64,000 nt of DNA from NCBI GenBank assembly GCA_965248535.1, contig CBDFJR010000005.1:2080001-2144000 (forward strand), in the 5' to 3' direction. The position numbers were made by a program, and so were the translations under genes. The stretch comes from Phormidesmis sp. GTDB lineage: Bacteria; Cyanobacteriota; Cyanobacteriia; Leptolyngbyales; Leptolyngbyaceae. The notes under the pieces were generated by a model that made no database searches, was not told where the DNA came from, and saw only the letters and a program-made list of their open reading frames with translations. Below, piece after piece: positions 1-51,391 of this stretch; within the stretch, counting starts at the first letter, position 1; every line of letters starts with the position of its first letter.

Positions 1-2
1 GA

Positions 3-2663
3 ATGACGCTCTCGGCAATCAATACCTTTGGCGGAGTGATGAGCGATCGGGCAAGTGTCCTTGATCTTTTATCTCCGTTTCTTCCGGTTGGTTTCTACTA
101 CAAGGCGTTTAAAAACAAGCGGTTATTCCCTGTTTGGGAGCGCTTGATTCGCACCATGACAGGACTCGGACAAGTAGACTTCTCAACACCTCATAATCGG
201 ACGGCAAAACGCTATGATTTTTGTGATCTCTTAATCGTAGGAGCAGGAGTATCAGGACTCTCAGCGGCTCTCTCAGCGGCAGATCGGGGGGCAGACGTGG
301 TAGTGGTCGATGAGAATGCGAGAGCAGGTGGATCGGGTCACTATCAATTGGGAAATGACACACTCCGACTTGAGAGAACAAACGACTTATTAAACGCTGT
401 TGATAATCATTCGAGAATTCGGCTCTATACCCAAACGCAAGCAGCAGGCTACTACGCCGATCGCTGGATTCCATTATTGGATTGCGATCGCTTAACTAAA
501 CTTCGAGCAAAAGCAGTGATTGTGGCAACGGGAGCCTATGAACAACCTGCCGTGTTTCATAATAATGATTTGCCAGGTGTCATGCTGGCGAGTGCCGCGC
601 AACGACTCATTTATCGCTATGCGGTCAGGCCGATGAATCGAGTTGTTGTCTTGACGGCTAATGCTGATGGCTATCGAGCGGTCATGGACTTGATAGCTCA
701 TGGAGTCACGATCGCTGCCGTGGTTGATCTTAGAGAGAGTTCGTTGAACAGTGAGATGGCCCGATCGCTAGACCAAACCAACATTCCGATTTTCTTGGGA
801 TGCTGCGTCTATGAGGCGAGGGCCAATCCAGGTCGAGATGGCGTATCGGCGGCGGTCATTTGCCCGATCGACGTGAACGGTAACCCGCAAACTGGATTTA
901 GGCAAACGATCGCGTGTGACGGCATTGTGATGAGTGTAGGCTGGGCACCTGCGGCAAACTTGCTCTATCAGGCAGGCACTAAGATGCGGTTTGATCGGCG
1001 ATTGCAGCAGTTTGTTCCAGAGGTTTTGCCGTCTGGCGTGTTTGCCTGTGGTCGGGTGAATGGCGTGTTTGAGTTTGATCAAAAGCTAATAGATGGTCAG
1101 CGATCGGGGCTAGAAGCCGCCGCTTACTTGGGATTGGCAGAGCGCATTGAGGTCACAATCTCGCCCGAACCAGAATCGCCGTCCCATCCGTGGGCGATCG
1201 TTGAACATCCGGCCGGAAAGAATTTTGTAGACTTCGATGAAGACTTGCAGTACAAAGATTTTGTTAACGCTGCTCAAGAAGGATTTGATAACATTGAGTT
1301 GCTCAAACGATATACAACCGTTGGAATGGGAGCGAGTCAAGGAAAACACTCCAATATGAATGCGCTGAGAATCTTAGCGCGCATCACTGGAAAAACTCCC
1401 GGCGAAGTGGGAACAACGACATCACGGCCATTTTTTCATCCAGTTCCGCTTTCGCACTTAGCAGGGCGAGGCTTTACGCCTGAGCGACGCACCCCACTAC
1501 ACAGCCGTCACGCTAGACTGAATGCTAAATTTATGCGGGCAGGAATGTGGCAACGACCGGACTATTATGCCCGATCGGGTAAAAGTCGCGAAGAGTGCAT
1601 TCGGCTCGAAGTTCAGGCAGTCAGGCAGCAGGTGGGGATCATAGATGTTGGCACGTTGGGTAAATTTGAGATTCGGGGAGCAGATGCGGCAGAGTTTTTA
1701 GAGCGAGTTTATGCCGGACGCTATCGCACGATGAAAGTCGGCACTACGCGCTATGCTCTAATGCTGGATGAAACAGGGGTGACGATCGACGATGGCATCA
1801 TCGCTCGGCTCGGAGCAGAGCATTTTTATTTCACCACGACGACCTCAGGCGCTGCAACTATCTATCGGGAGTTGTCTCGACTAAATACGCTGTGGCGATT
1901 AGACTGCGGAATTGTGAATTTAACAGGGGCACGATCGGCGATCAACCTTGCCGGACAATATTCGCGTGATCTGTTGTCTAAAGTGATGGACTTGGATCTC
2001 TCTAGCGTTTCATTTCCTTATCTCGCTGTTCGTGAAACTCATATTCAAGAGATTCCAGTGCTGTTAATGCGAGTTGGCTTTGTAGGTGAGTGGGGCTATG
2101 AGATTCACGTTCCGGCATATTATGCTCTAGCGTTGTGGGATCTGTTAATGAAATCAGGACTTGACTATCAGATTTGTCCGTTTGGCGTAGAAGCGCAGCG
2201 TCTTTTGCGACTCGAAAAAGGACACCTGATTATCGGTCAAGACACTGACGGGTTGACGACTCCATTTGAGGCAGGGCTAGAGTGGGCGGTGAAGATGGAC
2301 AAACCTTTTTTCATCGGTCAGCGCAGTTTACAGGTTCTGTCAAAGCGCCCCGTTAAACAAACCTTAATCGGCTTCTTGCTCGATCCAAATTTTCAAGGAA
2401 CGCCACCGCAGGAGTGTCATTTAATCATTGATCGGGGTGAGATGGCAGGCCGCGTCACGAGCGTTGCCTTTAGTCCCAGTCTTAACCGCTATATCGGACT
2501 CGCTTACGTGAACCTAGAATTAGCAACGATCGGCGATCGCGTCTCGATTCGACTATCAGATGGCACGATCGTCGCCGCAACCGTTGCCCCAACTCCATTC
2601 TACGATCCCGATCATTTACGTCAGCGAGAAGACCTGTTTCAGCGTCAAGAGGTGGCGGTATGA
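3..2663 (+). CDS. soxA: Sarcosine oxidase alpha-like / N-methylglutamate dehydrogenase large subunit (MgdC-like); 5' end probably outside the window
   Basis: Rossmann GAGVSGLSAA motif, ATGAYE..LPGVMLA, KRYTTVGMGASQGK, C-terminal GcvT-like folate-binding domain (DVGTLGK..GEWGYEI..LRLEKGH). Confidence 0.88.
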   Translation: MTLSAINTFGGVMSDRASVLDLLSPFLPVGFYYKAFKNKRLFPVWERLIRTMTGLGQVDFSTPHNRTAKRYDFCDLLIVGAGVSGLSAALSAADRGADVVVVDENARAGGSGHYQLGNDTLRLERTNDLLNAVDNHSRIRLYTQTQAAGYYADRWIPLLDCDRLTKLRAKAVIVATGAYEQPAVFHNNDLPGVMLASAAQRLIYRYAVRPMNRVVVLTANADGYRAVMDLIAHGVTIAAVVDLRESSLNSEMARSLDQTNIPIFLGCCVYEARANPGRDGVSAAVICPIDVNGNPQTGFRQTIACDGIVMSVGWAPAANLLYQAGTKMRFDRRLQQFVPEVLPSGVFACGRVNGVFEFDQKLIDGQRSGLEAAAYLGLAERIEVTISPEPESPSHPWAIVEHPAGKNFVDFDEDLQYKDFVNAAQEGFDNIELLKRYTTVGMGASQGKHSNMNALRILARITGKTPGEVGTTTSRPFFHPVPLSHLAGRGFTPERRTPLHSRHARLNAKFMRAGMWQRPDYYARSGKSREECIRLEVQAVRQQVGIIDVGTLGKFEIRGADAAEFLERVYAGRYRTMKVGTTRYALMLDETGVTIDDGIIARLGAEHFYFTTTTSGAATIYRELSRLNTLWRLDCGIVNLTGARSAINLAGQYSRDLLSKVMDLDLSSVSFPYLAVRETHIQEIPVLLMRVGFVGEWGYEIHVPAYYALALWDLLMKSGLDYQICPFGVEAQRLLRLEKGHLIIGQDTDGLTTPFEAGLEWAVKMDKPFFIGQRSLQVLSKRPVKQTLIGFLLDPNFQGTPPQECHLIIDRGEMAGRVTSVAFSPSLNRYIGLAYVNLELATIGDRVSIRLSDGTIVAATVAPTPFYDPDHLRQREDLFQRQEVAV

Positions 2664-3313
2664 TGCGCCATAGCCCCAATCACGATCAGCTTCAAGCCCT
2701 CAACGGCACTTGGCGCACCATTAACGGAATGCCCTCCCTCGTTTCTATTCTTGGAGATGAGCAGACTGTAGCGCAGTTGAGCATCGCTGATCTGTCATTT
2801 CTCACCCGATTTGGAGTCAAAGGAGCTGGGGCCGCCGCTTGGCTTGAGAGTCAGAATCTTGAGGTGCCCGATCGGGCCAATACCTGGAAATTTCTCGCAG
2901 ATGGCTCAATGATCGCCCGTCTCGGCCTAACAGAATTCTTGATCGAAGATAGCCTCCACAGCAGTTTTGCGCTGCGATTGGCTGAGGCGTGTCAGTCAGT
3001 TCCGGCGCAGGTGTATCCAGTGTTGCGACAAGATGCCGCGATCGTGCTGTGCGGTACAGCGATTCCAGATCTGCTGCGGCAAACTTGTAGCGTTGACGTT
3101 CAAGCGTTCTCTCTTGCAGAACAGCCAGTGATTTTAACCTTGATGGTGGGCGTTAGCGTGACCATGATTCCGATCGCGTCTGATCGCTATCGAATCTGGT
3201 GTGATGGCACATTTGGATCGTATTTGTGGGAGACATTGGTCACGATCGTGCAAGAGTTGGGCGGGGGAGTGGTCGGTGCCGATCGCTTAATCTCAACTCA
3301 GACTATTTTTTAG
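2660..3313 (+). CDS. soxG: Sarcosine oxidase gamma-like subunit (MgdD-like)
   Basis: ATGA overlap with soxA; DLSFLTRFGVKGAGAAAWL..ARLGLTEFLIE..RIWCDGTFGSYLWETL resembles SoxG/GcvT N-domain. Confidence 0.78.
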   Translation: MMRHSPNHDQLQALNGTWRTINGMPSLVSILGDEQTVAQLSIADLSFLTRFGVKGAGAAAWLESQNLEVPDRANTWKFLADGSMIARLGLTEFLIEDSLHSSFALRLAEACQSVPAQVYPVLRQDAAIVLCGTAIPDLLRQTCSVDVQAFSLAEQPVILTLMVGVSVTMIPIASDRYRIWCDGTFGSYLWETLVTIVQELGGGVVGADRLISTQTIF

Positions 3314-3325
3314 TAGAGGACAGTC

Positions 3326-4654
3326 ATGACACCAGCAGAAGCGACTCAATTTCTAGCCGAGCATCAGATCAAATTTGTTCTAGCGCAGTTTGTCGATATC
3401 CACGGAGCCGCCAAAACCAAAGCCGTTCCTGCCTCACACTTTGAGGATATTTTGTGCCCCGGTGCAGGCTTTGCGGGGTTTGCCGTCTGGGGCTTGGGCA
3501 TGAAGCCTAACAGTCCTGATTTTATGGCGGTGGGCGATTTGTCAACGCTCGCGATCGTGCCCTGGATGCCCGGATTTGCCCGCATTGTCTGCGTTGGTTA
3601 TGTCCACGGCAAGCCCTACGCCTACGACACCCGCTTTATCTTACAGCAGCAGATCGAACGCCTGACCCAAAAAGGCTGGGTGCTTAACACCGGAGTCGAG
3701 CCAGAATTTGTGCTGCTTCGCAAAGATGACCAGGGCAAGATTCAGCCCTACGACCCGACCGATACCCTCGATAAACCTTGCTATGACTATAAAGGACTAT
3801 CTCGCAGTTTGACCTTTATTGAGAAGCTGGTGACGAGTCTGCAAGCGGCTGATTTTGATGTCTATCAGATCGATCACGAAGACGCAAACGGTCAATTTGA
3901 AATTAACTACACCTACACAGATTGTTTAACGACCGCCGATCGCTTCATCTATTTCAAAATGGCAGCGTCAGAAATCGCGAAGGAACTGGGGCTAATTTGC
4001 TCGTTTATGCCCAAACCGTTTGCCAATCGCACAGGCACCGGAATGCACATGCACCTGTCACTGTGGGAAGGTGACACGAATATCTTTGCAGATGACACCG
4101 ACCCACGAGATTTAGGACTGTCAAAACTGGCCTATCATTTCATGGCAGGGCTGCTTGCTCACGCTCCCGCCCTAACCGCGATCTGTGCGCCGACGGTGAA
4201 TTCTTATAAACGGTTGGTGGTGGGTCGATCGCTGAGTGGCTCAACCTGGGCACCTGCCTATATTAGTTACGGCGATAACAACCGTTCGAGTATGGTGCGT
4301 GTTCCTGGCGGCCGCTTAGAGTTGCGTCTGGCAGATGGCTCTTGTAACCCATATCTGGCAACGGCGGCCGCGATCGCCGCAGGGCTAGACGGCATCGAAA
4401 AACAACTCGATCCGGGTGAACCGTGGAATGTGAATCTCTATGATTTCTCAAATGCAGAACTGAATGAAAAAGGAATTCAGACCCTCCCACAAAGTTTAAA
4501 AGAAGCGATCGATGCGCTTGCTGCTGATAACGTGATTAAAAATGCGTTGGGCGTTTTGGCTGATGAATTTATTAACCTCAAGCAGATGGAATGGGTCGAA
4601 TATATGCGACACGTTTCTGAATGGGAAGTTCAACGTTATCTAGAATTTTTCTAA
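3326..4654 (+). CDS. gmaS: Type III glutamine synthetase family (GlnT), probable gamma-glutamylmethylamide synthetase
   Basis: [60 protein letters not shown]; sits directly upstream of glxBCD-like genes. Confidence 0.85.
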
Positions 4655-4659
4655 ATACT

Positions 4660-5556
4660 ATGTGTGGAATTGTTGGACTGCTGGTTAAAAAGCCTGAACT
4701 ACGCAAATCACTCGGCGCAATGATGGTGCCGATGCTGATCGGGATGAGCGATCGTGGCCCCGACTCCGCCGGACTCGCGATCTTTACAGAACTGCTAGAC
4801 GAAGGTCACCGCAAATACAGCCTCTATTCGGGTGATCAAGAATTTAATTGGTCAGAATTGCTCTATAAATTTCAATCTCACTTTGAAGGAGATACGGAAA
4901 TTGACAGTCAAGGGAATCACGCTATCTTGATTGCTAATGCCGATCCAAACTCAGCCAAACAATGGATTAAGCAACACTATCCACACCTATATATTTTGTC
5001 TACAGGCCGAGCCATTAATCTCTATAAAGACATCGGCACGCCTCAGCAGGTCAGCGATCGCTATCACTTCAAATCGCTCCAAGGCTCTCACTTGGTCGGT
5101 CACACGCGCATGGCTACCGAGTCGGCCGTGACAGCCGCCCACGCGCACCCGTTTACGGCGGGCGAAGATTTTTGTCTGGTTCACAACGGTTCGCTCTCAA
5201 ACCCCTACGAGATTCGCCGCAAACTTGAGCCGCAGGGCATCCAGTTTGAAACCGACAACGACACCGAAGCTGCCTGTCGCTTTTTAGAGTGGCGAATGCG
5301 GGAAGGAGATGACCTTGAAACTGCCCTTCAGAAAGGCTTTGAGGAGTTAGACGGCTTCTACACATTTCTCATGGGAACGGCGGATAAACTCGCCCTAGTG
5401 CGGGATGCCTTTGCCTGCAAACCCGCGATCGTAGCCGAGACCGATGACTATGTAGCGATCGCATCAGAGTTCCGATCGCTGGCTCATCTGCCCGATGTCA
5501 ATCACGCCCATCTCTACGAACCTGCACCAGAGGAACTGTATGTATGGACAGTGTAA
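4660..5556 (+). CDS. mgsA: Class II glutamine amidotransferase (GlxB / N-methylglutamate synthase subunit A)
   Basis: True start MCGIVG gives the N-terminal Cys nucleophile; RGPDSAG, GHTRMATES, VHNGSLSN, NDTE. Confidence 0.85.
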   Translation: MCGIVGLLVKKPELRKSLGAMMVPMLIGMSDRGPDSAGLAIFTELLDEGHRKYSLYSGDQEFNWSELLYKFQSHFEGDTEIDSQGNHAILIANADPNSAKQWIKQHYPHLYILSTGRAINLYKDIGTPQQVSDRYHFKSLQGSHLVGHTRMATESAVTAAHAHPFTAGEDFCLVHNGSLSNPYEIRRKLEPQGIQFETDNDTEAACRFLEWRMREGDDLETALQKGFEELDGFYTFLMGTADKLALVRDAFACKPAIVAETDDYVAIASEFRSLAHLPDVNHAHLYEPAPEELYVWTV

Positions 5557-6224
5557 TCTTTGACTTGTCACAAACGTCTCTACGCGAGGTGAATCAGTTT
5601 CTTCATCACCATGCAAATGGTCAGTCAATCAAGATTATTAACCCTAATGGGGCACATAATATTGCAGTTGGACTTAATTTGCCGATCGCAGTTGAGATTG
5701 CTGGACATGTTGGTTATTATGCTGCGGGAATGAATCAGTTAGCAACCGTGACGATTGACGGCAATGCAGGCACAGGCGTTGCAGAAAATATGATGTCTGG
5801 ACGGGTTCATGTCAAAGGCTTTGCATCTGTCTCAGCCGGGGCTTCGGCCCAGGGAGGGTTGCTCATCATCGACGGCAACGCCAGCCTGCGCTGTGGCATT
5901 TCACTAAAAGGCGGCGATATTGTAGTGGGGGGCAATGTGGGCAGTTTTTCGGCCTTCATGGCCCAAGCCGGACGAATTGTGATTTGTGGAGATGCGGCTG
6001 ACGCGATCGGAGATTCTCTCTATGAAGCGGTGATCTATCTGCGCGGCAACGCAAAATCTCTGGGAGCAGATGCCCAATTTGAGCCGATGTCAGACACCGA
6101 TTATCAGGCGGTCGGTGAGCTACTCGCCAAAGCCGGGTTGTCTCACGACCCCCAAGATTTTAGGCGCATTGCCTCTGCCAAGCGGCTCTATCACTGGAAC
6201 GCCGACGCTAATCAGGAGTATTAA
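5544..6224 (+). CDS. mgsB: GXGXG beta-helix protein (GlxC / N-methylglutamate synthase subunit B)
   Basis: Repeated GxxG motifs (GHVGYYAAGMN, GNAGTGVAENMMSG, GDSLYEAVIY); overlaps the mgsA end. Confidence 0.85.
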   Translation: MDSVIFDLSQTSLREVNQFLHHHANGQSIKIINPNGAHNIAVGLNLPIAVEIAGHVGYYAAGMNQLATVTIDGNAGTGVAENMMSGRVHVKGFASVSAGASAQGGLLIIDGNASLRCGISLKGGDIVVGGNVGSFSAFMAQAGRIVICGDAADAIGDSLYEAVIYLRGNAKSLGADAQFEPMSDTDYQAVGELLAKAGLSHDPQDFRRIASAKRLYHWNADANQEY

Positions 6225-6226
6225 CC

Positions 6227-7597
6227 ATGAATCAATCTGAATCGGGTCAATCGTTCTCGCTTGAGGAATCGGCAGGCTACGATCGCCGCATTCTCAACTA
6301 CATTCAAAACGCCGCCGCTCATGGACTGTATGAAATTCGGGGGCTAGGTGCCAAACGTCGATTGCCTCACTTTGATGATTTGGTGTTTCTCGGTTCGTCA
6401 CTGAGTCGCTATCCTCTCGAAGGCTATCGCGAAAAATGCACGACCAAGACAATTCTGGGTACTCGCTTTGCTCAAAAACCGATCGAGCTAGAGATGCCGA
6501 TCACGATCGCGGGCATGAGTTTTGGATCACTCTCCGCCAACGTTAAAGAAGCTCTCGGACTCGCCGCCACCCAAGCCGGAACTTCGACGACAACGGGCGA
6601 TGGCGGCATGACTTCAGAAGAACGGCTGTCGTCTAAAACGCTGATTTATCAATGCCTCCCGTCTCGCTATGGGTTTAACCCAGATGATGTTAGGAGGGCA
6701 GACGCGATCGAGATTGTGATCGGTCAAGGCGCAAAACCGGGCGGCGGCGGAATGCTATTGGGACAAAAAATAAATCCTAGAGTGGCAGAAATGCGAACGC
6801 TACCGGAAGGCATTGATCAACGATCGGCCTGTCGGCATCCTGATTGGACAGGGCCCGACGATCTCACCATCAAAATCCAAGAACTGCGAGAACTCACCGA
6901 TTGGGAAAAACCCATCTACGTCAAAATCGGCGCATCGCGGACGTTTAATGATGTCAAACTTGCCGTTCATGCTGGGGCAGATGTGATCGTCTTGGATGGA
7001 ATGCAGGGGGGCACTGCCGCAACTCAGAATGTGTTTATCGAGCATGTCGGCATTCCGACGCTGGCGGCCCTCCGGTTAGCGGTGGAGGCGCTCGAAGAGT
7101 TAGACATGAAAGGAACCGTGCAGTTGATTGTGTCGGGCGGCATTCGCACCGGGGCAGATGTGGCAAAAGCGCTGGCCATGGGGGCTGATGCGGTGTCGAT
7201 CGGGCAGGCCGTTTTGATGGCGATGGGCTGCAATAGTGAAACTTATATTCAACATGATATACATCACTCAGCGATCGCAGACTACAACGCTTTAGGAACT
7301 GCACCCGGATACTGTCATCATTGCCATACAGGTCAATGTCCAGTCGGAATCACTACACAGGATACAATCCTAGAAAAACGCCTAGAAACTCAAGTTGGAG
7401 CACGACGAGTCAAGAACTATCTACAAACCCTGACGATGGAATTAACCACGATCGCTCGTGCGTGCGGCAAGCAAAACGTTCATCACTTAGAACGCGAAGA
7501 TTTAGTTGCTCTCACTCTAGAAGCAGCAGCGATGGCGCGGCTCCCCCTTGCTGGAACAAACTGGATTCCGGGTTGGACATCAGGGGCAAATTTTTAA
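6227..7597 (+). CDS. mgsC: FMN-binding glutamate synthase-like subunit (GlxD / N-methylglutamate synthase subunit C)
   Basis: AGMSFGSLS, TTGDGGM, GQGAKPGGGG, ACRHPDWTGPDDL, Fe-S motif CHHCHTGQCPVG. Confidence 0.87.
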   Translation: MNQSESGQSFSLEESAGYDRRILNYIQNAAAHGLYEIRGLGAKRRLPHFDDLVFLGSSLSRYPLEGYREKCTTKTILGTRFAQKPIELEMPITIAGMSFGSLSANVKEALGLAATQAGTSTTTGDGGMTSEERLSSKTLIYQCLPSRYGFNPDDVRRADAIEIVIGQGAKPGGGGMLLGQKINPRVAEMRTLPEGIDQRSACRHPDWTGPDDLTIKIQELRELTDWEKPIYVKIGASRTFNDVKLAVHAGADVIVLDGMQGGTAATQNVFIEHVGIPTLAALRLAVEALEELDMKGTVQLIVSGGIRTGADVAKALAMGADAVSIGQAVLMAMGCNSETYIQHDIHHSAIADYNALGTAPGYCHHCHTGQCPVGITTQDTILEKRLETQVGARRVKNYLQTLTMELTTIARACGKQNVHHLEREDLVALTLEAAAMARLPLAGTNWIPGWTSGANF

Positions 7598-7651
7598 TAT
7601 TATGTATTCATTCATCCAATCGTTGTAACCTAACTCACCCATGTTTTGACT

Positions 7652-8170
7652 ATGACCTACTTTGAACAGACTGCTAATCTTCCACTCCTCTCATCATCGA
7701 CCTACACAATGTTAACGGCGCTGTTAAACTTTGTGTGTGCGACGACTGACTGGGAATATGGCGAATCCTGGATTCCTAATGAAGCTCTCAACACGCTAGA
7801 GTTAAGCCCTGCCTGGTGTTTAAACAATCAAATGGAGGTTCATCGAGCGATCGCGTGGTCGCAGTTTCAGTTGTGCAGTCAGGCCTTTGTGTTAAACCAA
7901 AATGAAGGCTTGCCTGGGCGGGTTTGGGCCTCTCAAAAACCAGAATGGATGCCTGATGCATCTACTCCGTCAGAAACCTATTTTTTGCGCCATCAAATCG
8001 CTCAAGCCTTTAGCGTCAAAGCAGGATTTGGAGTGCCTATTTTGGTCGATTCTAAAGTGTTAGCGGTGTTGGTTTTTTTCATGTCTGTAGCGCGATCTGA
8101 AAACCCCGATCTGATTCAGCGCACTCAAGCGGCGATCGCAGAATTCAGACAATCCTCTCCCTACGAGTAG
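7652..8170 (+). CDS. Stand-alone GAF domain protein
   Basis: WEYGESWIP..NEGLPGRVW..GFGVPI..VLAVLVFF, typical cyanobacterial GAF; no output domain. Confidence 0.7.
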   Translation: MTYFEQTANLPLLSSSTYTMLTALLNFVCATTDWEYGESWIPNEALNTLELSPAWCLNNQMEVHRAIAWSQFQLCSQAFVLNQNEGLPGRVWASQKPEWMPDASTPSETYFLRHQIAQAFSVKAGFGVPILVDSKVLAVLVFFMSVARSENPDLIQRTQAAIAEFRQSSPYE

Positions 8171-10878: not shown

Positions 10879-11870
10879 GGTAGTGCCATTTAGGAAAGGA
10901 TAGGGAAAATAAGCTGGTTCTGTATGATCCTCTGTCGTCGTTGTTCATTAGACCTGTTGTGAAATAGCGTTCAAAATCGCTGAAACCTTTATGCTGTCTA
11001 GCTTCTAGAGCTTTTTCGGTAGATCGCTCGAAACGATTGCTCCGACTGGCTTCCAGGCACTTGTGATCTTATTTCGCAACAACTCTATTGTAGTAGTGGA
11101 TAAAGTTCCAGATAGCCTTGATGTGATTGTTCAAGTTCTTCGAGAACGACAAGGTTTTGCGAACTAACCGAGAGACTCGTTGGCGTAAGGTATTGTTGAA
11201 TCGCTCAATGTAACTAGTCAGCCCACTGTCTTTGCCTACCGCTCGATGTCGCTGACGTGGGATCGCAACTGGGTAGGACACCCAGAAATCGCCATAACAG
11301 ACCGCACATTGCCGGTACACTGCTGGCAACGAGCGCCAAAGCGCTTTGGCGGATTCTCCTGATCGGTCGCCGATATAACAGCCGACGATCTCGCGCGTTT
11401 CGACATCCAAAGCTAGCCAGACCCACTGTTCGTTGCCTTTGTCATCCACAAATGACCACAACTCGTCCATCTGCACTGTCAGTCGTCGTCGAGACTTCGG
11501 TTGCACTTGCACTGGTTGAGGAACGCTCGCATAGTAGTCATTCACGTATTGCTGGAGCCAGCTTTCACTGATTTGCAAACTTCGAGCAATCCCAGCGAGC
11601 GGAATCTTTTCCAGAAGCATTCGATCAATCATCGATTTAGTTTCGTCACTGATCCGTCTCCACTTGGGATGTTCCACGAACTGTCGTCCACAGTCGCGAC
11701 ATTTATAGTTCTGATTCCCATGCCGAGTCGTACCGTTCTTGTTAATGTCATGGGAGCCACAGTTTGGACAGTGCAGCAGCGGTTTGATCATCCGTATTGT
11801 CAGGAAAACAAGTCTACTTTTCTATTCTCGCTCGTTCTTTTTTCTACGTCCTTCCCTAAATGGCACTACC
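10879..11870 (-). mobile_element. IS1-family insertion sequence, 992 bp
   Basis: 22-bp terminal inverted repeats GGTAGTGCCATTTAGG(A/G)AAGGA with one mismatch; contains the transposase ORF; no target-site duplication. Confidence 0.9.
11069..11791 (-). CDS. IS1 family transposase (InsA-InsB in a single ORF)
   Basis: Zn ribbon CPNC..YKCRDCGRQF, HTH, DDE core MDELWSFV..YGDFW..IERFNNTLRQR. Confidence 0.92.
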   Translation of the reverse strand: MIKPLLHCPNCGSHDINKNGTTRHGNQNYKCRDCGRQFVEHPKWRRISDETKSMIDRMLLEKIPLAGIARSLQISESWLQQYVNDYYASVPQPVQVQPKSRRRLTVQMDELWSFVDDKGNEQWVWLALDVETREIVGCYIGDRSGESAKALWRSLPAVYRQCAVCYGDFWVSYPVAIPRQRHRAVGKDSGLTSYIERFNNTLRQRVSRLVRKTLSFSKNLNNHIKAIWNFIHYYNRVVAK

Positions 11871-45299: not shown

Positions 45300-46463
45300 A
45301 TGGATGACCTCAAGGTTTTGATCATCGGGGCAGGCATGGGCGGTTTAGCGACAGGCATTGCGCTGCGTCAGGTGGGATATCAGGTTGAAATCTACGATCG
45401 GGTCAGCGAGTTGCGCCCGGCCGGGGCTGGCATTTCTCTCTGGTCAAACGGGGTGAAGGTGCTCAATCGTCTGGGCTTGGGCAAAGCGATCGCCCAAATC
45501 GGCGGGCAGATGGATCGGATGCAATATCACAGCCACACCGGAGAATTGCTCACCGATGTTAGTCTGGCTCCGCTGGTGCAAAAAGTTGGGCAGCGCCCCT
45601 ACCCCGTGGCTCGAACTGATTTGCAAACCATGCTGCTCAATCAGTTTGGGGCTGAAAAGGTGCAGCTTAACTGCAAGTGTGTTGAGATTGAGCAAACTGA
45701 AACCAGCGTCACGGCTCGATTTGAAGACGGTCGCACGGCAACAGGCGACGTGTTGATTGGCGCAGATGGCACCCACTCGATCGTGCGCGATCGCGTCTTA
45801 GGTCACAAGACCGATCGCCACTATGTCGGCTATGTCAACTGGAACGGACTCGTGCCCGTCAGTCCAGATCTGGCTCCGGCTAATAGCTGGGCGATCTATG
45901 TCGGTGAACACAAACGCGCCTCGCTGATGCCTGTGGGCGATGGGCGATTTTATTTCTTTTTTGACGTGCCGCTTCCTAAGGGTTCTGTCAGCACGCCAGA
46001 CCACTATCGAGAGGAGTTGATGAGCTTTTTTAAGGGCTGGGCTGCCCCTGTGCAGGCGTTGATTGAGCGACTTGACCCGTTGAAGACCAATCGGGTTGAG
46101 ATTCACGATATTGAGCCGTTAGAACGGTTTGTGCAGGGTCGCGTCGCTCTGTTGGGTGATGCCGCTCACAGCACGGCTCCTGATCTGGGACAGGGCGGCT
46201 GTCAAGCGATCGAGGATGCTGAGGTTTTAACGCGCTATCTGAGTTCGACGACGATCGGGGTTGCAGATGCCCTCAATCGCTATGAGGCAGAGCGGCTAGG
46301 ACGAACGGCAGATATTGTGCTGAGAGCACGAAAGCGATCACACATGACTCACGGCAAAGACCCCGAAAAAACACAGCAGTGGTATGAACAACTTAAGCAC
46401 GATGATGGGAGCGATATCATCAACGCGATTTCTAATACAATCCTGGCGGGGCCACTCCACTAA
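45300..46463 (+). CDS. hpxO: FAD-dependent urate hydroxylase
   Basis: GAGMGG, GISLWSNG, YVNWNGLV, LGDAAH..PDLGQGGCQAIED; adjacent to uraH and uraD. Confidence 0.9.
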   Translation: MDDLKVLIIGAGMGGLATGIALRQVGYQVEIYDRVSELRPAGAGISLWSNGVKVLNRLGLGKAIAQIGGQMDRMQYHSHTGELLTDVSLAPLVQKVGQRPYPVARTDLQTMLLNQFGAEKVQLNCKCVEIEQTETSVTARFEDGRTATGDVLIGADGTHSIVRDRVLGHKTDRHYVGYVNWNGLVPVSPDLAPANSWAIYVGEHKRASLMPVGDGRFYFFFDVPLPKGSVSTPDHYREELMSFFKGWAAPVQALIERLDPLKTNRVEIHDIEPLERFVQGRVALLGDAAHSTAPDLGQGGCQAIEDAEVLTRYLSSTTIGVADALNRYEAERLGRTADIVLRARKRSHMTHGKDPEKTQQWYEQLKHDDGSDIINAISNTILAGPLH

Positions 46464-46520
46464 CGAGTGTGGATTAAATAAAGCTACACTACTGCGATGT
46501 TATACCACCACGATAAATCA

Positions 46521-46548
46521 GCGTAAGGGCATGGCATTGCCGTGCCCA
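46521..46548 (+). repeat. REP-like palindrome, copy 1 (GCGTAAGGGCATGGCATTGCCGTGCCCA)
   Basis: Near-identical copies at 51468 and 55219 (reverse strand). Confidence 0.75.
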
Positions 46549-46603
46549 GGGTCTACGCCAGTAACTAATATGATTTGATTCACGAATCTTAAAAGAAATC
46601 ACG

Positions 46604-46960
46604 ATGGGTAAACTCACAACTCACGTTCTAGATACAGCCCACGGCCGTCCGGCGGATAATGTGACGATCGAGCTTTTTGCAATTGATTCTACATCCCAAA
46701 AGAGATTACTTAAAACCCTGGTGACGAATGCTGACGGACGAACAGATTTGCCATTGCTCACCGATGCCGAATTCAAAATCGGCGTTTATGAACTTGTGTT
46801 CTCGATCGGAGCCTATTTTTCGCGCTTTGAGGACAAGCCTGTAGAAGTGCCCTTTCTCGACCGCATTCCCCTTCAGTTTGGCATCTCAGACCCGACGGGT
46901 CACTATCACGTTCCTCTGCTGGCATCGCCTTGGGCCTACAGCACTTATCGAGGCAGTTGA
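46604..46960 (+). CDS. uraH: 5-hydroxyisourate hydrolase
   Basis: LTTHVLDT..TNADGR..HYHVPLL..C-terminal YRGS. Confidence 0.95.
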   Translation: MGKLTTHVLDTAHGRPADNVTIELFAIDSTSQKRLLKTLVTNADGRTDLPLLTDAEFKIGVYELVFSIGAYFSRFEDKPVEVPFLDRIPLQFGISDPTGHYHVPLLASPWAYSTYRGS

Positions 46961-47467
46961 ATGGTTTACTCAATCAAAGAACTCAACCAGATGAGTCAAG
47001 CAGATTTTGTTAAGCACTTGGGCGCGGTTTTTGAAGAAACGCCCACGATCGCGCAACAAGCTTGGCAGCAGCGCCCCTTTGTGGATGTTGATGATCTGCA
47101 TCAAAAAATGGTGACGATCGTCAACGCTATGAGTCAGACTGAGCAACTCGCTTTAATTCGCGCTCACCCCGATTTGGGCACTAAAGCAAAGATGGCGGCG
47201 GCTTCGGTGCAAGAGCAGTCGGGGGTCGGCTTAGATCGGTTGACGGCGCAAGACTATGCCCGATTCCAGTCGCTTAATCAGGCTTATCAAACCAAGTTTG
47301 GGTTTCCGTTCATCATTGCTGTTAAAAATCATACTCAGTCCAGCATTCTAGAAGCATTCGAGAAACGATTAGAACATTCATTCTCAACCGAAATCACTCA
47401 AGCATTGACAGAGATTTCCACGATCGCTCATTTTCGATTAGTCGGTTTGATCGAGTCATCTGTGTAG
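46961..47467 (+). CDS. uraD: OHCU decarboxylase
   Basis: LIRAHPDLG, SVQEQSGVGL, KFGFPFIIAV. Confidence 0.93.
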   Translation: MVYSIKELNQMSQADFVKHLGAVFEETPTIAQQAWQQRPFVDVDDLHQKMVTIVNAMSQTEQLALIRAHPDLGTKAKMAAASVQEQSGVGLDRLTAQDYARFQSLNQAYQTKFGFPFIIAVKNHTQSSILEAFEKRLEHSFSTEITQALTEISTIAHFRLVGLIESSV

Positions 47468-47487
47468 AAGTCTCCTAATGATTTAAA

Positions 47488-47529
47488 GTATTCTTTGCTA
47501 CAAATGGCAAGGTTGGCGGCTTTTATACT
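47488..47529 (+). promoter_or_regulatory. Class II NtcA-activated promoter
   Basis: GTA-TTCTTTGC-TAC, exactly 22 nt, then TATACT -10 box, upstream of the ABC substrate-binding gene. Confidence 0.8.
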
Positions 47530-47556
47530 ACATTCGCCACGAAACAAGGACAGTGT

Positions 47557-48645
47557 GTGAGTTACCCTCAAGATTTTTTAGACCGTCAAGGTGTTAGTCG
47601 TCGCAAGTTTATTCAATATGGCTCGCTTGCTTTGGGCAGTGGCATCGTAGCTGCCTGCTCGAATGGCAGCAGTTCTTCAACCAGCAACTCCCCCAGCGCA
47701 TCGCCCGTTGCTAGTGCGGGCAAACTCGATAAGGTCACCATGAGCACCAATTGGTTTGCAGAAGCCGAGCATGGCGGCTTTTATCAGGCGGTTGCCAAGG
47801 GCATTTATAAAGATCATGGGCTAGATGTGACGCTCAAAATGGGCGGCCCTCAAGTTAACGGCACTCAGCTTTTGATGGGCGGCGCGATCGACTTCTTTAT
47901 GGGCTATGGAGCCGATGCGATCGTGTCGGTTGCATCGGGCATTCCTAAAATCACGGTGGCGGCGCTGTTTCAAAAAGACCCGCAGGTGTTGATTGCTCAC
48001 CCCGATGTGGGGGTCAAAGATTTGGCTGATCTCAAGGGCAAACCCATTTTGATGTCTGCTCAGGCTTACACCACTTATTGGCCCTATTTGAAGTCAAAAT
48101 TTGGCTTTAGTGACGACCAAAAACGCACCTATAACTTCAATCCTGGCCCTTTCTTAGCTGATAAAAATGTGGCTCAACAGGGCTATGTTTCGTCAGAACC
48201 CAACATTATCAAAAAAGTTGGCAAAATCGATCCCGTGGTTTTTCTGCTGGCGGATTCTGGCTATGCGCCCTATGCCACCACGATCGAGACTAAAAAAGAA
48301 CTGGTGGATAAAAATCCCGATCTGGTGCAGCGCTTTGTCGATGCCTCTATTAAGGGCTGGTATAGCTATCTCAAAGACCCGGCTCCGGGCGATGCGTTGA
48401 TTAAAAAAGACAATCCTGAGATGACAGACGAGCAGCTTGCTTATGCCCGATCGACGTTTGACCAATACAAAATTGTGAAGGGCGGCGATGCTGAAACTAA
48501 AGGCATTGGGGCGATGACCGATGAACGCTGGAAGACCTTTTTTGACTCAATGGTGACGGCTGGCGTGTTTAAAGCCGGAACCGACTATAAGCAGGCCTAT
48601 ACGCTAAAGTTTGTGAATAAAGGAGCACAAGCTTATCAAGCCTAA
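47557..48645 (+). CDS. ABC substrate-binding lipoprotein (NMT1/THI5-like), probable purine or nucleobase binder
   Basis: Tat-like SRRKFI, lipobox VAAC, NWFAEAEHGGFYQA, FQKDPQ. Confidence 0.82.
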   Translation: MSYPQDFLDRQGVSRRKFIQYGSLALGSGIVAACSNGSSSSTSNSPSASPVASAGKLDKVTMSTNWFAEAEHGGFYQAVAKGIYKDHGLDVTLKMGGPQVNGTQLLMGGAIDFFMGYGADAIVSVASGIPKITVAALFQKDPQVLIAHPDVGVKDLADLKGKPILMSAQAYTTYWPYLKSKFGFSDDQKRTYNFNPGPFLADKNVAQQGYVSSEPNIIKKVGKIDPVVFLLADSGYAPYATTIETKKELVDKNPDLVQRFVDASIKGWYSYLKDPAPGDALIKKDNPEMTDEQLAYARSTFDQYKIVKGGDAETKGIGAMTDERWKTFFDSMVTAGVFKAGTDYKQAYTLKFVNKGAQAYQA

Positions 48646-48655
48646 CGATAGGAAA

Positions 48656-49559
48656 ATGGCGATGACCACCCAAATTCCGGTGATTGATTTTGCGCCCTTT
48701 CTAATGGGCAACGCGACTGAAAAACAGGCAGTCGTTGAGCAAATTTATGCTGCCTGTCATCAAGTCGGGTTCATGTATTTGAGGAATATTGGAATCTCAC
48801 GATCGCTGCTCTCCGATTTGCTCGATCAGTCTCAACAGTTTTTTGATCTGCCGATCTCAATCAAAGAACAGTTAGCCCGATCGAGCATCACCAACTGCGG
48901 ATATATTGGGGTGCAAAAAGAGCGGCTAAATCCTCAAAATCCCTGGGATCTGAAAGAGGCGCTGAACGTGGGCATTCAGTCGGTTTGGCTTGCCTGAGCA
49001 AGAAGCGTTTCGAGACGTGGTGACGGAGTTTTATCGACTCTGCACGACCCAAGTTGCCCCCAATATTTTGCGGGCGTTTGCGATCGCGCTCCACCAACCT
49101 GAAGACTTTTTTGACGACAAACACGGTCAGCATTATTTTCTGCGAATGCTGCACTATCCGCCTGTGGCTCAAACTCCGTCACCGGGGCAACTGCGGGCCG
49201 GAGAACACAGCGACTATGGCAGCATCACGCTTTTGCTGCAAGATCAGATCGGAGGCTTAGAAGTGCGAACTCGCCAAGGCGACTGGATTGCCGCCCCGCC
49301 CATTGACGACACGATCGTGGTGAATGTGGGTGATGCCATGCAGCGCTGGACGGGCGATCGCTTAACGTCAACGCCTCATCGAGTCACGGTTCCGTTAGGC
49401 AAAGATAGCCAGCGATCGCGCTACTCGATCGCGCTTTTTTGTGACCCCAATCCCGATGTTGAGATTATCTGTTTAGATCAATCTGGCGATCGGGCTGCCC
49501 AATATCCGCCGATCTTGGCAGGCGACTATCTCGCGAGTCGATTAGCCGCCACTTACTAA
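48656..49559 (+). CDS. 2OG-Fe(II) dioxygenase (isopenicillin N synthase family), 1-bp frameshift at about 48990
   Basis: IPVIDF..GFMYL N-domain; LRMLHYP, HSDYG, VNVGD, PHRV, RYS in the second frame. Confidence 0.82.
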
Positions 49560-49621
49560 AAATCCGACTTAAAATCGCGGATCTCAGATACGCTTGATTT
49601 TGATCCCTTAGCCCGATCGCC

Positions 49622-50401
49622 ATGACTTCTCCCCTGACGCTCAACCACATCAACAAGGTTTATGCCAACGGCACGATCGCCCTGCAAGACATGAACCTTG
49701 ACATCGGTGCCTCGCAGTTTGTGAGTCTGGTGGGCCCGTCGGGCTGTGGCAAAAGCACTGCACTGCGGATCATTGCCGGGCTGGGGCAGATGAGTTCGGG
49801 GCAATTAGAGTGGGGGCAAGGGCCGCCGCCAAAACTGGCCTATGTGTTTCAAGAAGCCGCGCTGATGCCGTGGGCAACCGTAATGGATAATGTGCGACTG
49901 CCGCTAACACTGGCAAAAATGCCTCGACGAGAGGCGACGACTGCCGTAGAAGCCGCGATCGCGATGGTGGGTCTGCAAGGGTTTGAGAGCCGCTATCCCC
50001 GCGAGTTGTCAGGCGGCATGAAAATGCGCGTCTCGATCGCACGAGCGTTAGTGACTAAACCCGATGTGCTGCTGATGGATGAACCCTTTGCTGCCCTAGA
50101 TGAGATGACTCGCAGCCGCCTCAACAGCGACCTTTTATCGCTATGGAATCAACTTCGCTGGACGGTGATTTTTGTGACTCACAATATTTATGAGTCGGTC
50201 TATTTGTCGCAGCGCGTCGTTGTGATGGCGGCTCGTCCCGGTCGAGTAGTGGCTGATGTCGCGATCGCTGCCCCTTACCCTCGCGACGAAGAGTTTCGCA
50301 CGTCGATCGACTACAACCACTATTGCCGAGAAGTCTCTCATCACTTGGCTGCCGCGTCTCTCCAAGGAGCCGATCGCAACCTGCCCATGGCTACTCTCTA
50401 A
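49622..50401 (+). CDS. ABC transporter ATP-binding protein (TauB/SsuB type)
   Basis: GPSGCGKS, LSGGMKMR, LLMDEPF, VTH. Confidence 0.92.
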   Translation: MTSPLTLNHINKVYANGTIALQDMNLDIGASQFVSLVGPSGCGKSTALRIIAGLGQMSSGQLEWGQGPPPKLAYVFQEAALMPWATVMDNVRLPLTLAKMPRREATTAVEAAIAMVGLQGFESRYPRELSGGMKMRVSIARALVTKPDVLLMDEPFAALDEMTRSRLNSDLLSLWNQLRWTVIFVTHNIYESVYLSQRVVVMAARPGRVVADVAIAAPYPRDEEFRTSIDYNHYCREVSHHLAAASLQGADRNLPMATL

Positions 50402-50416
50402 AGGAACTTAAACCCG

Positions 50417-51391
50417 ATGCCTTGGCGACTGTTAACCGCGTTGATTTTAGAACTCCAAAACTTTTTGCGAATGGGTCGGCTCAATGCACCTAGGTCTGTT
50501 GATTTGTTGAGCAATCTATCCGGCAAGGTAAAGCGATCAGGCGATCGAAACGAGCTACGATCGCGGACAAGTTCTTTGCCCAAAATTCGATCGTCTTTGA
50601 TCAGACGGGTGCTCTCACCCGATGTTTTGGCTCCGGCAGGGGTGGGCGTGTTGGCGATCGCGTCTTGGGAAATTTTTGTCCGCGCAACCAATATGCCCCC
50701 TTATCTATTGCCGGGGCCGTTCCTAGTCTTTCAAACGTTAATCGACTCGTGGGGAGATTTATTTCCGTCTCTGTTAGTCACCTTAAAAGTAACGGTGGTC
50801 GCCTTCATTACAGCCGCCATCTCAGGGCTGTTAATTTCAGTTCTCTTTACCCAAAGCAAATGGATTGAGCGCAGTTTCTTTCCCTATGCGGTGATTTTGC
50901 AGACGACTCCGATCGTCGCGATCGCGCCTCTGATCATCATGTGGTTAAAAAACGACACCTTTTTAGCGTTAATCGTTTGCGCGTGGATTGTGGCCTTCTT
51001 CCCGATCGTTTCCAACACCACACTAGGTCTAAATAGCGTTGATCATAATTTAATTAACTTGTTTCACTTATATCGAGCTTCCCGTTGGCAAACGTTAATT
51101 TATTTACGATTACCCAGTGCGATGCCTTATTTTCTGGGTGGTTTGAAAATTAGCGGAGGATTGGCTCTGATCGGCGCAGTCGTTGCCGAATTTGTAGCGG
51201 GTACAGGCGGTTCTCAGTCAGGATTAGCCTATCAGATTTTGATGGCAGGCTATAATCTACAAATTCCTCGAATGTTCGCTGCCTTATTCATGATTACGTT
51301 AACAGGCGTGTTAATCTTCGCGTGTCTCACCTGGTTATCTAACTTTTTGCTGAAAGAATGGCATGAGAGCGCGATTAAGCGTGAGAACTAA
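50417..51391 (+). CDS. ABC transporter permease (TauC/SsuC type); start uncertain
   Basis: QTTPIVAIAPL, LRLPSAMP, IGAVVAEF. Confidence 0.88.
   Translation: MPWRLLTALILELQNFLRMGRLNAPRSVDLLSNLSGKVKRSGDRNELRSRTSSLPKIRSSLIRRVLSPDVLAPAGVGVLAIASWEIFVRATNMPPYLLPGPFLVFQTLIDSWGDLFPSLLVTLKVTVVAFITAAISGLLISVLFTQSKWIERSFFPYAVILQTTPIVAIAPLIIMWLKNDTFLALIVCAWIVAFFPIVSNTTLGLNSVDHNLINLFHLYRASRWQTLIYLRLPSAMPYFLGGLKISGGLALIGAVVAEFVAGTGGSQSGLAYQILMAGYNLQIPRMFAALFMITLTGVLIFACLTWLSNFLLKEWHESAIKREN

Follow-up and report, generated by a model that had tools for sequence, protein, structure and literature searches.

A predicted N-methylglutamate pathway operon in the cyanobacterium Phormidesmis sp. and its likely role in methylamine use

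Results

Organization of the operon

The window, that is, the whole stretch of 64,000 nucleotides analyzed here, opens inside an eight-gene run, mgdABCD-gmaS-mgsABC, whose last six genes it holds on the + strand (Table 1). The junctions between these six are, in order, a 4-nt overlap, a 12-nt gap, a 5-nt gap (gmaS-mgsA, measured to the Met-Cys start at 4660), a 13-nt overlap, and a 2-nt gap, and an earlier note describing them as co-oriented genes with overlapping or near-abutting ends was right about both their places and their families. The span of 3..7597 given there stands for the ORF ends but not for the first start, since mgdC begins 270 nt to the left of the window and not at position 3. 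Also left of the window edge lie mgdA, mgdB, and a divergent XRE-cupin regulator, the former two being the soxB- and soxD-like genes that had been predicted just upstream.

Table 1. Features of the predicted N-methylglutamate operon and its surroundings (C5, contig CBDFJR010000005.1)
Feature	Window position	Contig position	Strand	Length	Predicted product and support
XRE-cupin regulator, divergent		C5:2077496-2078113	-		HTH_3 + Cupin_2
Predicted promoter		C5:2078166-2078194			TTGACA-17-CATGAT
mgdA	outside	C5:2078235-2079473			soxB-like; TIGR01373 461 bits; GxGxxG at 36
mgdB	outside	C5:2079476-2079733			soxD-like; PF04267
mgdC	1..2663 (ORF 3-2663)	C5:2079730-2082663 (whole gene)	+	977 aa	soxA-like, N-methylglutamate dehydrogenase alpha subunit; Fer2_4, Pyr_redox_2, SO_alpha_A3, GCV_T, GCV_T_C
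mgdD	2660..3313		+	217 aa	soxG-like; TIGR01375 39 bits, E 5e-10, below cut-off
gmaS	3326..4654		+	442 aa	gamma-glutamylmethylamide synthetase-type ligase; TIGR03105 649 bits (cut-off 469.6)
mgsA (glxB)	4660..5556 (ORF 4621/4660-5556)		+	298 aa	class II Ntn amidotransferase; PF13522/PF13537; N-terminal Met-Cys
mgsB (glxC)	5544..6224		+	226 aa	GXGXG beta-helix protein; PF01493
mgsC (glxD)	6227..7597		+	456 aa	FMN-binding glutamate-synthase-type subunit; PF01645 311 bits
GAF-only gene	7646..8170		+		weak GAF matches

The genes of the N-methylglutamate pathway, gmaS, mgsABC, and mgdABCD, are all present and intact, and families, order, and GmaS-type residues agree with the identification made earlier. 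MgsABC is encoded by three separate genes, for an N-terminal-Cys Ntn amidotransferase (MgsA, beginning MCGIVG, with the same start residue in relatives), a GXGXG protein (MgsB, whose Acidithiobacillus counterpart is annotated as ‘protein glxC’), and an FMN glutamate-synthase domain (MgsC, with cysteines at Cys335/363/366/371). The four subunits of MgdABCD are Sox-like and include a GcvT domain for folate binding, and their genes are linked to gmaS-mgs. The GAF-only gene, 48 nt past mgsC, is found 3' of mgsC at four loci and is absent from the other cyanobacterial loci compared; it is probably a genus-level neighbor outside the pathway.

Identity of the ligase and of the Sox-like subunits

The ligase was compared with characterized GmaS and glutamine synthetase (GS) proteins, and it lies nearer to GmaS: its best structure match is Methylovorus GMAS (PDB 9QUR; 714 bits at E 5e-214, with an identity of about 67% when counted by hand on the alignment), with 364 bits for Rhodovulum GmaS (PDB 7CQL) against 283 bits for the best true GS. 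Identity to the genome's own GlnA is about 31%, and the TIGR00653 (GSI) score of 368 bits is under the cut-off of 429. Both ammonia-handling residues of GS are replaced, Ala50 standing for the ammonium-deprotonating Asp of the genome's own GlnA (GS Asp50') and Trp308 occupying the Glu-flap position, while K32, Y153, D183, E185, E192, N194, and R320 are equivalents of Lys30', Tyr147, Asp177, Glu179, Glu186, Asn188, and Arg312, which RhGmaS requires (PMC7948447). The genome also encodes glnA separately, along with a GS gene of glnN size; a third glutamine synthetase was rejected as the identity of the ligase because of the replaced residues and the scores. The signature residues occur in 108 of 109 aligned proteins, stand-alone and second-type ligases included, so they split GmaS-like proteins from GS without fixing the amine.

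All four Mgd subunits score under the NCBIfam sarcosine oxidase cut-offs (TIGR01372, 01373, 01374, and 01375), at 829/1164 bits for MgdC, 461/529 for MgdA, 67.5/116.5 for MgdB, and 39/144 for MgdD. Genomic context, these scores, and the automatic NCBI name ‘methylglutamate dehydrogenase’ carried by an 82%-identical MgdD of Phormidesmis priestleyi make the four subunits a probable Mgd rather than a sarcosine oxidase; the nearest named relatives in the comparison are themselves uncharacterized.

The set might nevertheless have different substrates, the ligase acting on another small amine (e.g., ethylamine) or on ammonia and the sox-like genes encoding a sarcosine oxidase. The NCBIfam label of the ligase family is indeed type III glutamate-ammonia ligase, both characterized GMAS enzymes take further amines too (PMC7948447 Table 1; PMC12588301), and among solved structures MgdA comes closest to sarcosine oxidase beta subunits (370 bits). 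We regard this as very unlikely given the replacement of both ammonia residues, the Km values of RhGmaS for methylamine (27 uM) and ammonium (8.7 mM; PMC7948447), the sub-cut-off scores of all four subunits, the two other GS genes, and the fact that the eight genes travel together across many phyla.

Distribution and phylogeny

TIGR03105 was matched in 27 of 401 genomes phylum-wide, Synechococcus elongatus among them, and only 3 of the 30 loci inspected had mgs/mgd neighbors. The family alone is therefore not diagnostic, most cyanobacterial matches being other proteins without such neighbors, and mgsA was taken as the census marker instead. Close mgsA genes occur in about a quarter of the family's genomes (24/90) and in 4 of 401 genomes phylum-wide; the cyanobacterial survey suggested earlier thus shows, at 24/90, that the operon is not limited to one genome. 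It is found in six of seven congeners, the one lacking it being a 65% complete genome, and also in cultured Phormidesmis priestleyi strains.

Gene order is identical for the regulator and all eight genes in 11 of 20 relative stretches, nine of which have no visible break. gmaS is absent from the operon in five relatives and frameshifted in another, and mgdC is broken in one more, which indicates that the operon is dispensable or eroding in some lineages. The same genes are co-located in other bacteria and tied to folate C1 genes: purU heads the operon in seven stretches of one genus, in one further stretch (L007), in Acidithiobacillus caldus, and in Paraburkholderia, with folD behind purU in A. 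caldus.

In a six-gene tree the 11 cyanobacteria group as a single clade (SH-aLRT 100) whose sisters are A. caldus, Paraburkholderia, and a metagenome-assembled genome (MAG L012). With mgsC alone, two Burkholderiales rows fall, weakly supported, among the cyanobacteria, and L012 is unresolved among cyanobacteria in the mgdA tree; concatenated trees bring back the single clade. These were quick LG+G4 or FastTree trees on subsets, none securely rooted, and they leave the donor unproven. They suggest that the cyanobacteria likely gained the cassette a single time from a Paraburkholderia/Acidithiobacillus-type lineage of proteobacteria, or share it with such a lineage, and that it then persisted in some cyanobacterial lineages but was lost or decayed elsewhere.

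Residence in the host genome

The earlier claim of long residence, made from HIP1 sites, is borne out. HIP1 (GCGATCGC) occurs at window positions 484, 2533, 4370, 5054, 5455, and 7271, that is, six times in 9,339 coding bases, against a mean of 0.8 and a maximum of 4 in 500 synonymous-codon shuffles; for CGATCG, 51 were observed and 9.7 expected from such shuffles. The HIP1 count is slightly low for the contig, where stretches of equal length have a median of 9 and 20% of the 261 examined contain six or fewer. The GC content of the operon (0.50-0.51) equals that of the genome. Against five relatives, dN/dS was 0.04-0.07 for the regulator, mgdA, gmaS, and mgsABC, 0.08-0.19 for mgdC/D, and 0.15-0.33 for mgdB, the low values being seen at dS 0.4-2.7.

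A gene set typical of proteobacteria and so rare in the phylum could in principle betray an assembly chimera, a contaminant, or a recent silent transfer. However, the contig around it is 2.45 Mb long and belongs to a 99.8% complete, 0.9% contaminated genome, the genes flanking the operon have cyanobacterial paralogues or synteny in congeners, and its occurrence in congeners, host-like HIP1 and GC, low dN/dS, and single cyanobacterial clade all agree with the earlier view that the contig is not chimeric. By these sequence signatures the objection is largely refuted, with a residual chance that we consider negligible, and the operon is native to its host and under purifying selection.

Promoter and metabolic surroundings

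The predicted promoter is conserved and of sigma70 type, with operator-like repeats common to cyanobacteria and proteobacteria; a TTCC-N5-GGAA-like site is also found upstream in A. caldus and P. caribensis. The NtcA box (GTA-N8-TAC) that the earlier note suggested looking for was found at the operon promoter in none of 22 distinct stretches, two of them incomplete on the 3' side, although glnA, amt, and the nitrate-uptake region, which served as positive controls, have one. This is unusual for a cyanobacterial nitrogen-scavenging locus, and the operon is thus probably run by its own regulator and not directly part of the global nitrogen regulon. Nor did a search for a wider regulon (amt, purU, folD) give a second strong site: the promoter model found a single one in the genome at 35.9 bits, the next scoring 19.3.

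The genes folD, purU, and amt, which the earlier note suggested looking for, are present in the genome, as are glyA and gcvT, all unlinked to the operon. No transporter gene was found in or linked to the operon. In the genome we found no Tdm by tblastn, no Tmm-grade FMO (one weak FMO match only), no formate-THF ligase, and no canonical formate dehydrogenase; two formate dehydrogenase matches were set aside, by eye, one being a narB-like gene located next to genes for nitrate transport and the other a YdeP-like protein. The search for the DMA-monooxygenase family gave zero matches, controls included, and is uninformative. The window also carries a urate-catabolism cluster. This cluster and the lack of any nifH over the cut-off in the genome would fit scavenging of organic nitrogen. 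Across the family, nifH occurs in 3 of 26 mgsA-positive and 21 of 64 mgsA-negative genomes, a weak trend (Fisher p 0.064) among kin that are not independent.

The same chemistry might serve another purpose, namely detoxification or recycling of methylamine or the supply of C1 units and reductant, with little nitrogen gained. Phycobiliproteins carry a gamma-N-methylasparagine modification, and the methylamine could be either external or intracellular, for example from this residue during phycobiliprotein turnover. The missing NtcA box, the missing operon transporter, and the single strong promoter site would all suit such a role, as would the cost of GMAS alone to Synechocystis with alkylamine around (PMC12588301). 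We nevertheless find it improbable: a need common to all phycobilisome-bearing cells misfits an mgsA gene in so few genomes of the phylum, the complete route gives nitrogen back as glutamate regardless, and the nifH trend, though weak, favors nitrogen.

Discussion

An intact operon with its own regulator makes it likely that this cyanobacterium uses methylamine, mainly as a nitrogen source, via the N-methylglutamate route, known as a nitrogen route in non-methylotrophs (PMC5023228). In the scheme we envisage, whose steps are modeled on characterized homologues, methylammonium would enter via the single Amt and GmaS would ligate methylamine to glutamate with ATP, giving gamma-glutamylmethylamide. 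Amt is a transporter of methylammonium. MgsABC would work as a split glutamate synthase, Cys2 of MgsA releasing the methylamine and the flavin of MgsC being the site where it is fixed on the 2-oxoglutarate skeleton as N-methylglutamate; this step would also yield ammonium for GlnA/GlnN-GOGAT, ammonium being a product of the classical exchange reaction of N-methylglutamate synthase. MgdABCD would then oxidize the N-methyl group, and the GcvT-like domain of MgdC would load it onto tetrahydrofolate; the glutamate so regenerated would hold the methylamine nitrogen. The methylene-THF could feed the synthesis of serine, purines, or thymidine, or FolD and PurU could turn it into formate; any free formaldehyde would be caught by FrmA. 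For the XRE-cupin protein we predict repression of both divergent promoters via the TTCC-N5-GGAA-like sites, spaced 20 bp apart, until a pathway metabolite binds it and lifts repression.

A bolder and rather doubtful version would have a branch of filamentous cyanobacteria use light energy to assimilate methylamine and retain both of its atoms, nitrogen in glutamate and the methyl carbon in serine, by means of a proteobacterial repressor on a cyanobacterial promoter, outside NtcA control. If so, methylene-THF would meet photorespiratory glycine at serine hydroxymethyltransferase, sparing glycine decarboxylation with its loss of CO2 and ammonia, and such cyanobacteria would be an unrecognized methylamine sink in mats and crusts. 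In cyanobacterial transport work methylamine is treated as a non-metabolized ammonium analogue; in such cells methylammonium would no longer be inert as a tracer of ammonium.

The N-methylglutamate pathway (GmaS + MgsABC + MgdABCD) has been described before (PMC7948447; PMC5023228; PMC7574528), and we found no report of it in cyanobacteria in the literature searched. What we describe is a known pathway in an apparently new host group, with one subunit already named by NCBI; the chemistry of the enzymes was known before, and operons of this kind occur in many phyla. The usual view of methylamine is that heterotrophs and methylotrophs consume it and that phototrophs then receive ammonium from them (PMC7574528), and a native complete pathway in about a quarter of one family means that some phototrophs probably take it directly. 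For cyanobacterial engineering, the locus provides GmaS, Mgs, and Mgd enzymes already adapted to such a host, as well as a candidate amine-responsive promoter. It further cautions that several unrelated cyanobacterial proteins are pooled when gmaS or TIGR03105 serves as the marker. The stand-alone TIGR03105 proteins of other cyanobacteria resemble the ligase in family score and signature residues, but they are about 40-46% identical to it, fall in separate clades, and have no mgs/mgd genes within the flanks examined.

Heterotetrameric sarcosine oxidase SoxBDAG (PDB 2GAG, 1VRQ) has four homologous subunits in identical order, and the Mgd proteins retain its Rossmann motif together with the His of HDxVxW in the beta subunit. 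Unlike Sox, the delta-like subunit has Asn and Asn/Ser at what we take to be the Sox zinc-ligand positions, and the mgd genes are linked to gmaS-mgsABC and not to glyA or creatine genes. The closest cassettes, on A. caldus mpAca1.1 and the plasmids of Paraburkholderia phymatum and P. caribensis (XRE regulator-purU-mgdABCD-glnT-glxBCD), share the gene order, form the sister clade, and are 58-82% identical for most subunits. A. caldus is also an autotroph. In contrast, the Phormidesmis operon has lost purU (a 46%-identical purU lies elsewhere in the genome), and its regulator is divergent, whereas that of Paraburkholderia is co-oriented. The Pseudomonas and Azotobacter loci examined carry a sigma54-type motif (15/17 loci) in place of the sigma70-type promoter seen here.

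With the pathway of Methyloversatilis, Methylocella, Methylobacterium, and the Roseobacter group the operon shares all eight genes, their domain make-up, and the folate-linked final step, purU and folD being associated in relatives; the host differs in being an oxygenic photoautotroph without linked transporter, Tdm, Tmm, or Dmm genes. The Methylovorus mays (9QUR) and Rhodovulum sp. 12E13 (7CQL) enzymes share with the ligase the Ala for GS Asp50', the Trp for the Glu flap, the Asp/Glu catalytic pair, and the methylamine-pocket residues. Finally, while MmGMAS is an introduced foreign gene in Synechocystis (PMC12588301), the ligase gene of Phormidesmis is native.

Operon layout and residence in the host

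All six co-oriented, overlapping or abutting open reading frames that the earlier note placed at the start of the window were found, with the identities it gave them matched by profiles (soxA-like, soxG-like, TIGR03105, class II amidotransferase, GXGXG and FMN glutamate-synthase), and the soxB and soxD it predicted just upstream are present left of the window as SoxB-like (412 aa) and SoxD-family (85 aa) genes. The true start of the first window gene, mgdC (977 aa), also lies there, as does a divergent regulator of 205 aa with HTH_3 and Cupin_2 domains, from which the operon runs mgdA, mgdB, mgdC, mgdD, gmaS, mgsA, mgsB, mgsC. MgdC has a folate-binding GcvT domain, MgsA begins with Met-Cys and MgsC keeps its cysteine cluster.

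Long residence, previously argued from HIP1 sites, is borne out by synonymous shuffles, GC and dN/dS. The operon has the GC of the 5.03 Mb genome. Its coding sequence contains 6 HIP1 sites, where 500 shuffles averaged 0.8 and never exceeded 4 (CGATCG: 51 vs 9.7). In comparisons with five relatives, the regulator, mgdA, gmaS and mgsABC had dN/dS of 0.04-0.07, mgdC/D of 0.08-0.19 and the short mgdB of 0.15-0.33; the closest named ligases, from Phormidesmis, stand at 94%. The operon is real, intact and native, and that it is an artefact is extremely improbable.

The GAF-only protein encoded after mgsC is kept in congeners (dN/dS 0.11-0.16) and has a 43% paralogue, and an IS1-family transposase gene lies 3.5 kb downstream of the operon. 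In one genus (L167-L171, L173) mgdC carries an in-frame insertion of ~40-70 codons, at the same spot as the frameshift in L174 mgdC.

Coordinates of the window and of neighbouring or related features
Feature	Stretch	Position (strand)
Window	G000, contig C5	2080001-2144000
GAF-only protein	Window	7646-8170 (+)
Its paralogue	Host contig C2	844813
IS1-family transposase	Window	11069-11791 (-)
Urate catabolism cluster	Window	45300-51391 (+)
2OG-Fe(II) dioxygenase, two ORFs	Window	48656-48997; 48990-49559
Distant mgsABC type	L130	7361-12684
Distant mgsABC type	L131	9093-12253
Distant mgsABC type	L133	2298-3800
Distant mgsABC type	L178	
Distant mgsABC type	L179	
Genes after operon, uncultured cyanobacterium	L009	6491-11037
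Cassette, Acidithiobacillus caldus mpAca1.1	L190	10423-22291

Ligase identity and stand-alone ligases

Against solved structures, the ligase scored 714 bits with Methylovorus GMAS 9QUR (~67% identity by hand count), 364 bits with 7CQL, the Rhodovulum GmaS, and no more than 283 bits with any glutamine synthetase (GS). PMC7948447 defines GmaS by Ala replacing GS Asp50', Trp replacing the Glu-flap glutamate, and catalysis by Asp177/Glu186. The window ligase has A50, W308, D183 and E192, with pocket residues K32, Y153, E185 and N194, whereas the host's own GlnA has D at 50 and H at 183; glnA and a glnN-sized gene lie elsewhere in the genome. Because these signatures are present in nearly all of 109 aligned proteins, they exclude GS but leave the amine unnamed; that the operon serves a different substrate is distinctly unlikely.

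TIGR03105 exceeded its cut-off in 27/401 genomes of the phylum in 56 of the 90 of the family, and in the control, Synechococcus elongatus; mgs/mgd neighbours occur at only 3 of 30 fetched loci, the remaining ligases being 39-46% identical. A stand-alone Rhodovulum-type GmaS-like gene is widespread in other cyanobacteria (L082-L096, L100-L103, L132, L135-L138), its products having all signature residues and no mgs/mgd neighbours. According to old reports, cyanobacteria turn methylammonium into gamma-glutamylmethylamide, and one Nostoc isolate is said to use methylammonium as nitrogen source. The stand-alone enzyme could lie behind this glutamylation in model strains, and might substitute where the operon has lost gmaS.

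Distribution

With MgsA as query, 6/401 genomes of the phylum matched (four close to the operon type at 74-100%, two distant), as did 26/90 in the window's order, which comprises one family (24 close, two at 37-38%). Within the order, matches cover 20/67 high-quality genomes, 11/27 genera and 6/7 congeners; named records add Hydrococcus, Aliterella, FACHB-502 and others to the operon carriers, and a Kovacikia minuta plasmid record matches mgdA and mgdD. Among 20 stretches compared (19 of the 26 family matches and one from another genome, G302), operon and regulator genes, nine in all, stand in order in 11 (L163-L171, L173, L174), with gmaS frameshifted in L171 and mgdC broken in L174. The stretch of L172 lacks mgsC, and those of L175, L176, L177 and L181, and likewise L129, lack gmaS; contig ends cut the operon in L180 and L182, while L178 and L179 are of the distant type.

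Family genomes with nifH number 3/26 among mgsA-positive and 21/64 among mgsA-negative ones (Fisher p 0.064, kin not being independent). In all three with both genes (L129, L174, L181) the operon is incomplete or broken, gmaS being absent in two and mgdC broken in one; a tie between nifH and a broken operon is only a hint, several nifH-negative genomes also being broken.

The distant mgsABC type, a second form in cyanobacteria, has 36-45% identity in mgsA/B and 66-68% in mgsC, with a GntR regulator and single flavoprotein in two loci and an Amt-like gene in L130. In L009, GntR, Tdm-like and acyl-CoA-dehydrogenase-like genes follow the operon, hinting at use of higher methylamines; the Tdm-like protein scored 768 bits with NF053776 (cut-off 1100).

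Promoter and regulation

The 23 regulator-operon intergenic stretches (22 distinct) all keep TTGACA, with CATGAT or a near variant 17-18 nt later, and the host-genome promoter is among its region's top-scoring consensus matches. When the genome was scanned with a model built on 15 stretches of other genera, it was the sole strong site (35.9 bits; next 19.3). GTA-N8-TAC, the NtcA box, was found in none of the 23 and is present in the same genome at glnA, amt and the nitrate-uptake region. Of 17 gammaproteobacterial regulator-gmaS loci, 15 carry a sigma54-type motif and, behind it, two TTCC-N5-GGAA-like sites spaced 20 bp apart. Scored on the cyanobacterial promoters, a matrix made solely from these gammaproteobacterial sites (11 distinct) gave top offsets of +41, -19 and +1 from TTGACA, the same 20-bp register. 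The strength of the signal varies between loci: in 12/23 stretches the best 20-bp pair beat at least 97/100 shuffles, and in the host-genome promoter 8/100 shuffles reached it. The regulator may bind the TTCC-N5-GGAA-like sites as a repressor.

Pathway and physiological role

As described in PMC7948447 and PMC7574528, GmaS converts methylamine with ATP to gamma-glutamylmethylamide, MgsABC converts this to N-methylglutamate, and MgdABCD yields glutamate and methylene-THF. In the host, ATP-dependent GmaS would likewise form gamma-glutamylmethylamide from methylamine, MgsABC would pass it on as N-methylglutamate, and MgdABCD would return glutamate and methylene-THF. The genome carries amt, folD, purU, gcvT, glyA and frmA; formate-THF ligase, canonical formate dehydrogenase and nifH over cut-off were not found in it. 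For the CO2-fixing host the gain is probably nitrogen from methylamine; non-methylotrophs use the pathway as a nitrogen route (PMC5023228). Detoxification or C1 supply is a rather unlikely role. The window also holds a urate catabolism cluster, in which hpxO, HIU hydrolase and OHCU decarboxylase exceed their cut-offs; it further includes ABC transporter genes and a split 2OG-Fe(II) dioxygenase.

No report of the native pathway in cyanobacteria was among the papers listed by full-text literature searches; the trees of the founding gmaS papers may include cyanobacterial sequences, as may Figure 9 of PMC7948447 and the supplements of the papers. Passages of PMC13595746, PMC7574528, PMC5023230 and bioRxiv 10.1101/365627 do not place it there, and in PMC12588301 Methylovorus GMAS is expressed as a foreign gene in Synechocystis. 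Novelty is reduced because NCBI already names Phormidesmis MgdD 'methylglutamate dehydrogenase'; here a canonical pathway occurs in a group of hosts from which the literature searched gave no report.

Origin and comparison with known systems

Concatenated trees of mgsABC (30 rows) and of six genes (32 rows) unite the cyanobacteria in one clade (98 and 100), sister to Acidithiobacillus caldus, Paraburkholderia and the MAG L012. In the GmaS tree (72 of 109 rows, near-duplicates removed), the 12 cyanobacterial operon ligases form one clade (SH-aLRT 98), apart from the stand-alone cyanobacterial proteins and nested in a clade with Burkholderiales/Proteobacteria rows (100); the single-gene mgsC and mgdA trees put two and one proteobacterial rows, respectively, among the cyanobacteria, without strong support. 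On these phylogenies a single shared origin of the cyanobacterial operons is well supported, and a proteobacterial donor is likely, although the tree root is insecure. The A. caldus stretch, on a megaplasmid of another autotroph, carries this cassette, purU and folD included, between transposase genes. The sister lineages are arranged regulator-purU-mgdABCD-gmaS-mgsABC, A. caldus having folD behind the operon, and purU is also retained in L007 and, within a single cyanobacterial genus, in seven stretches.
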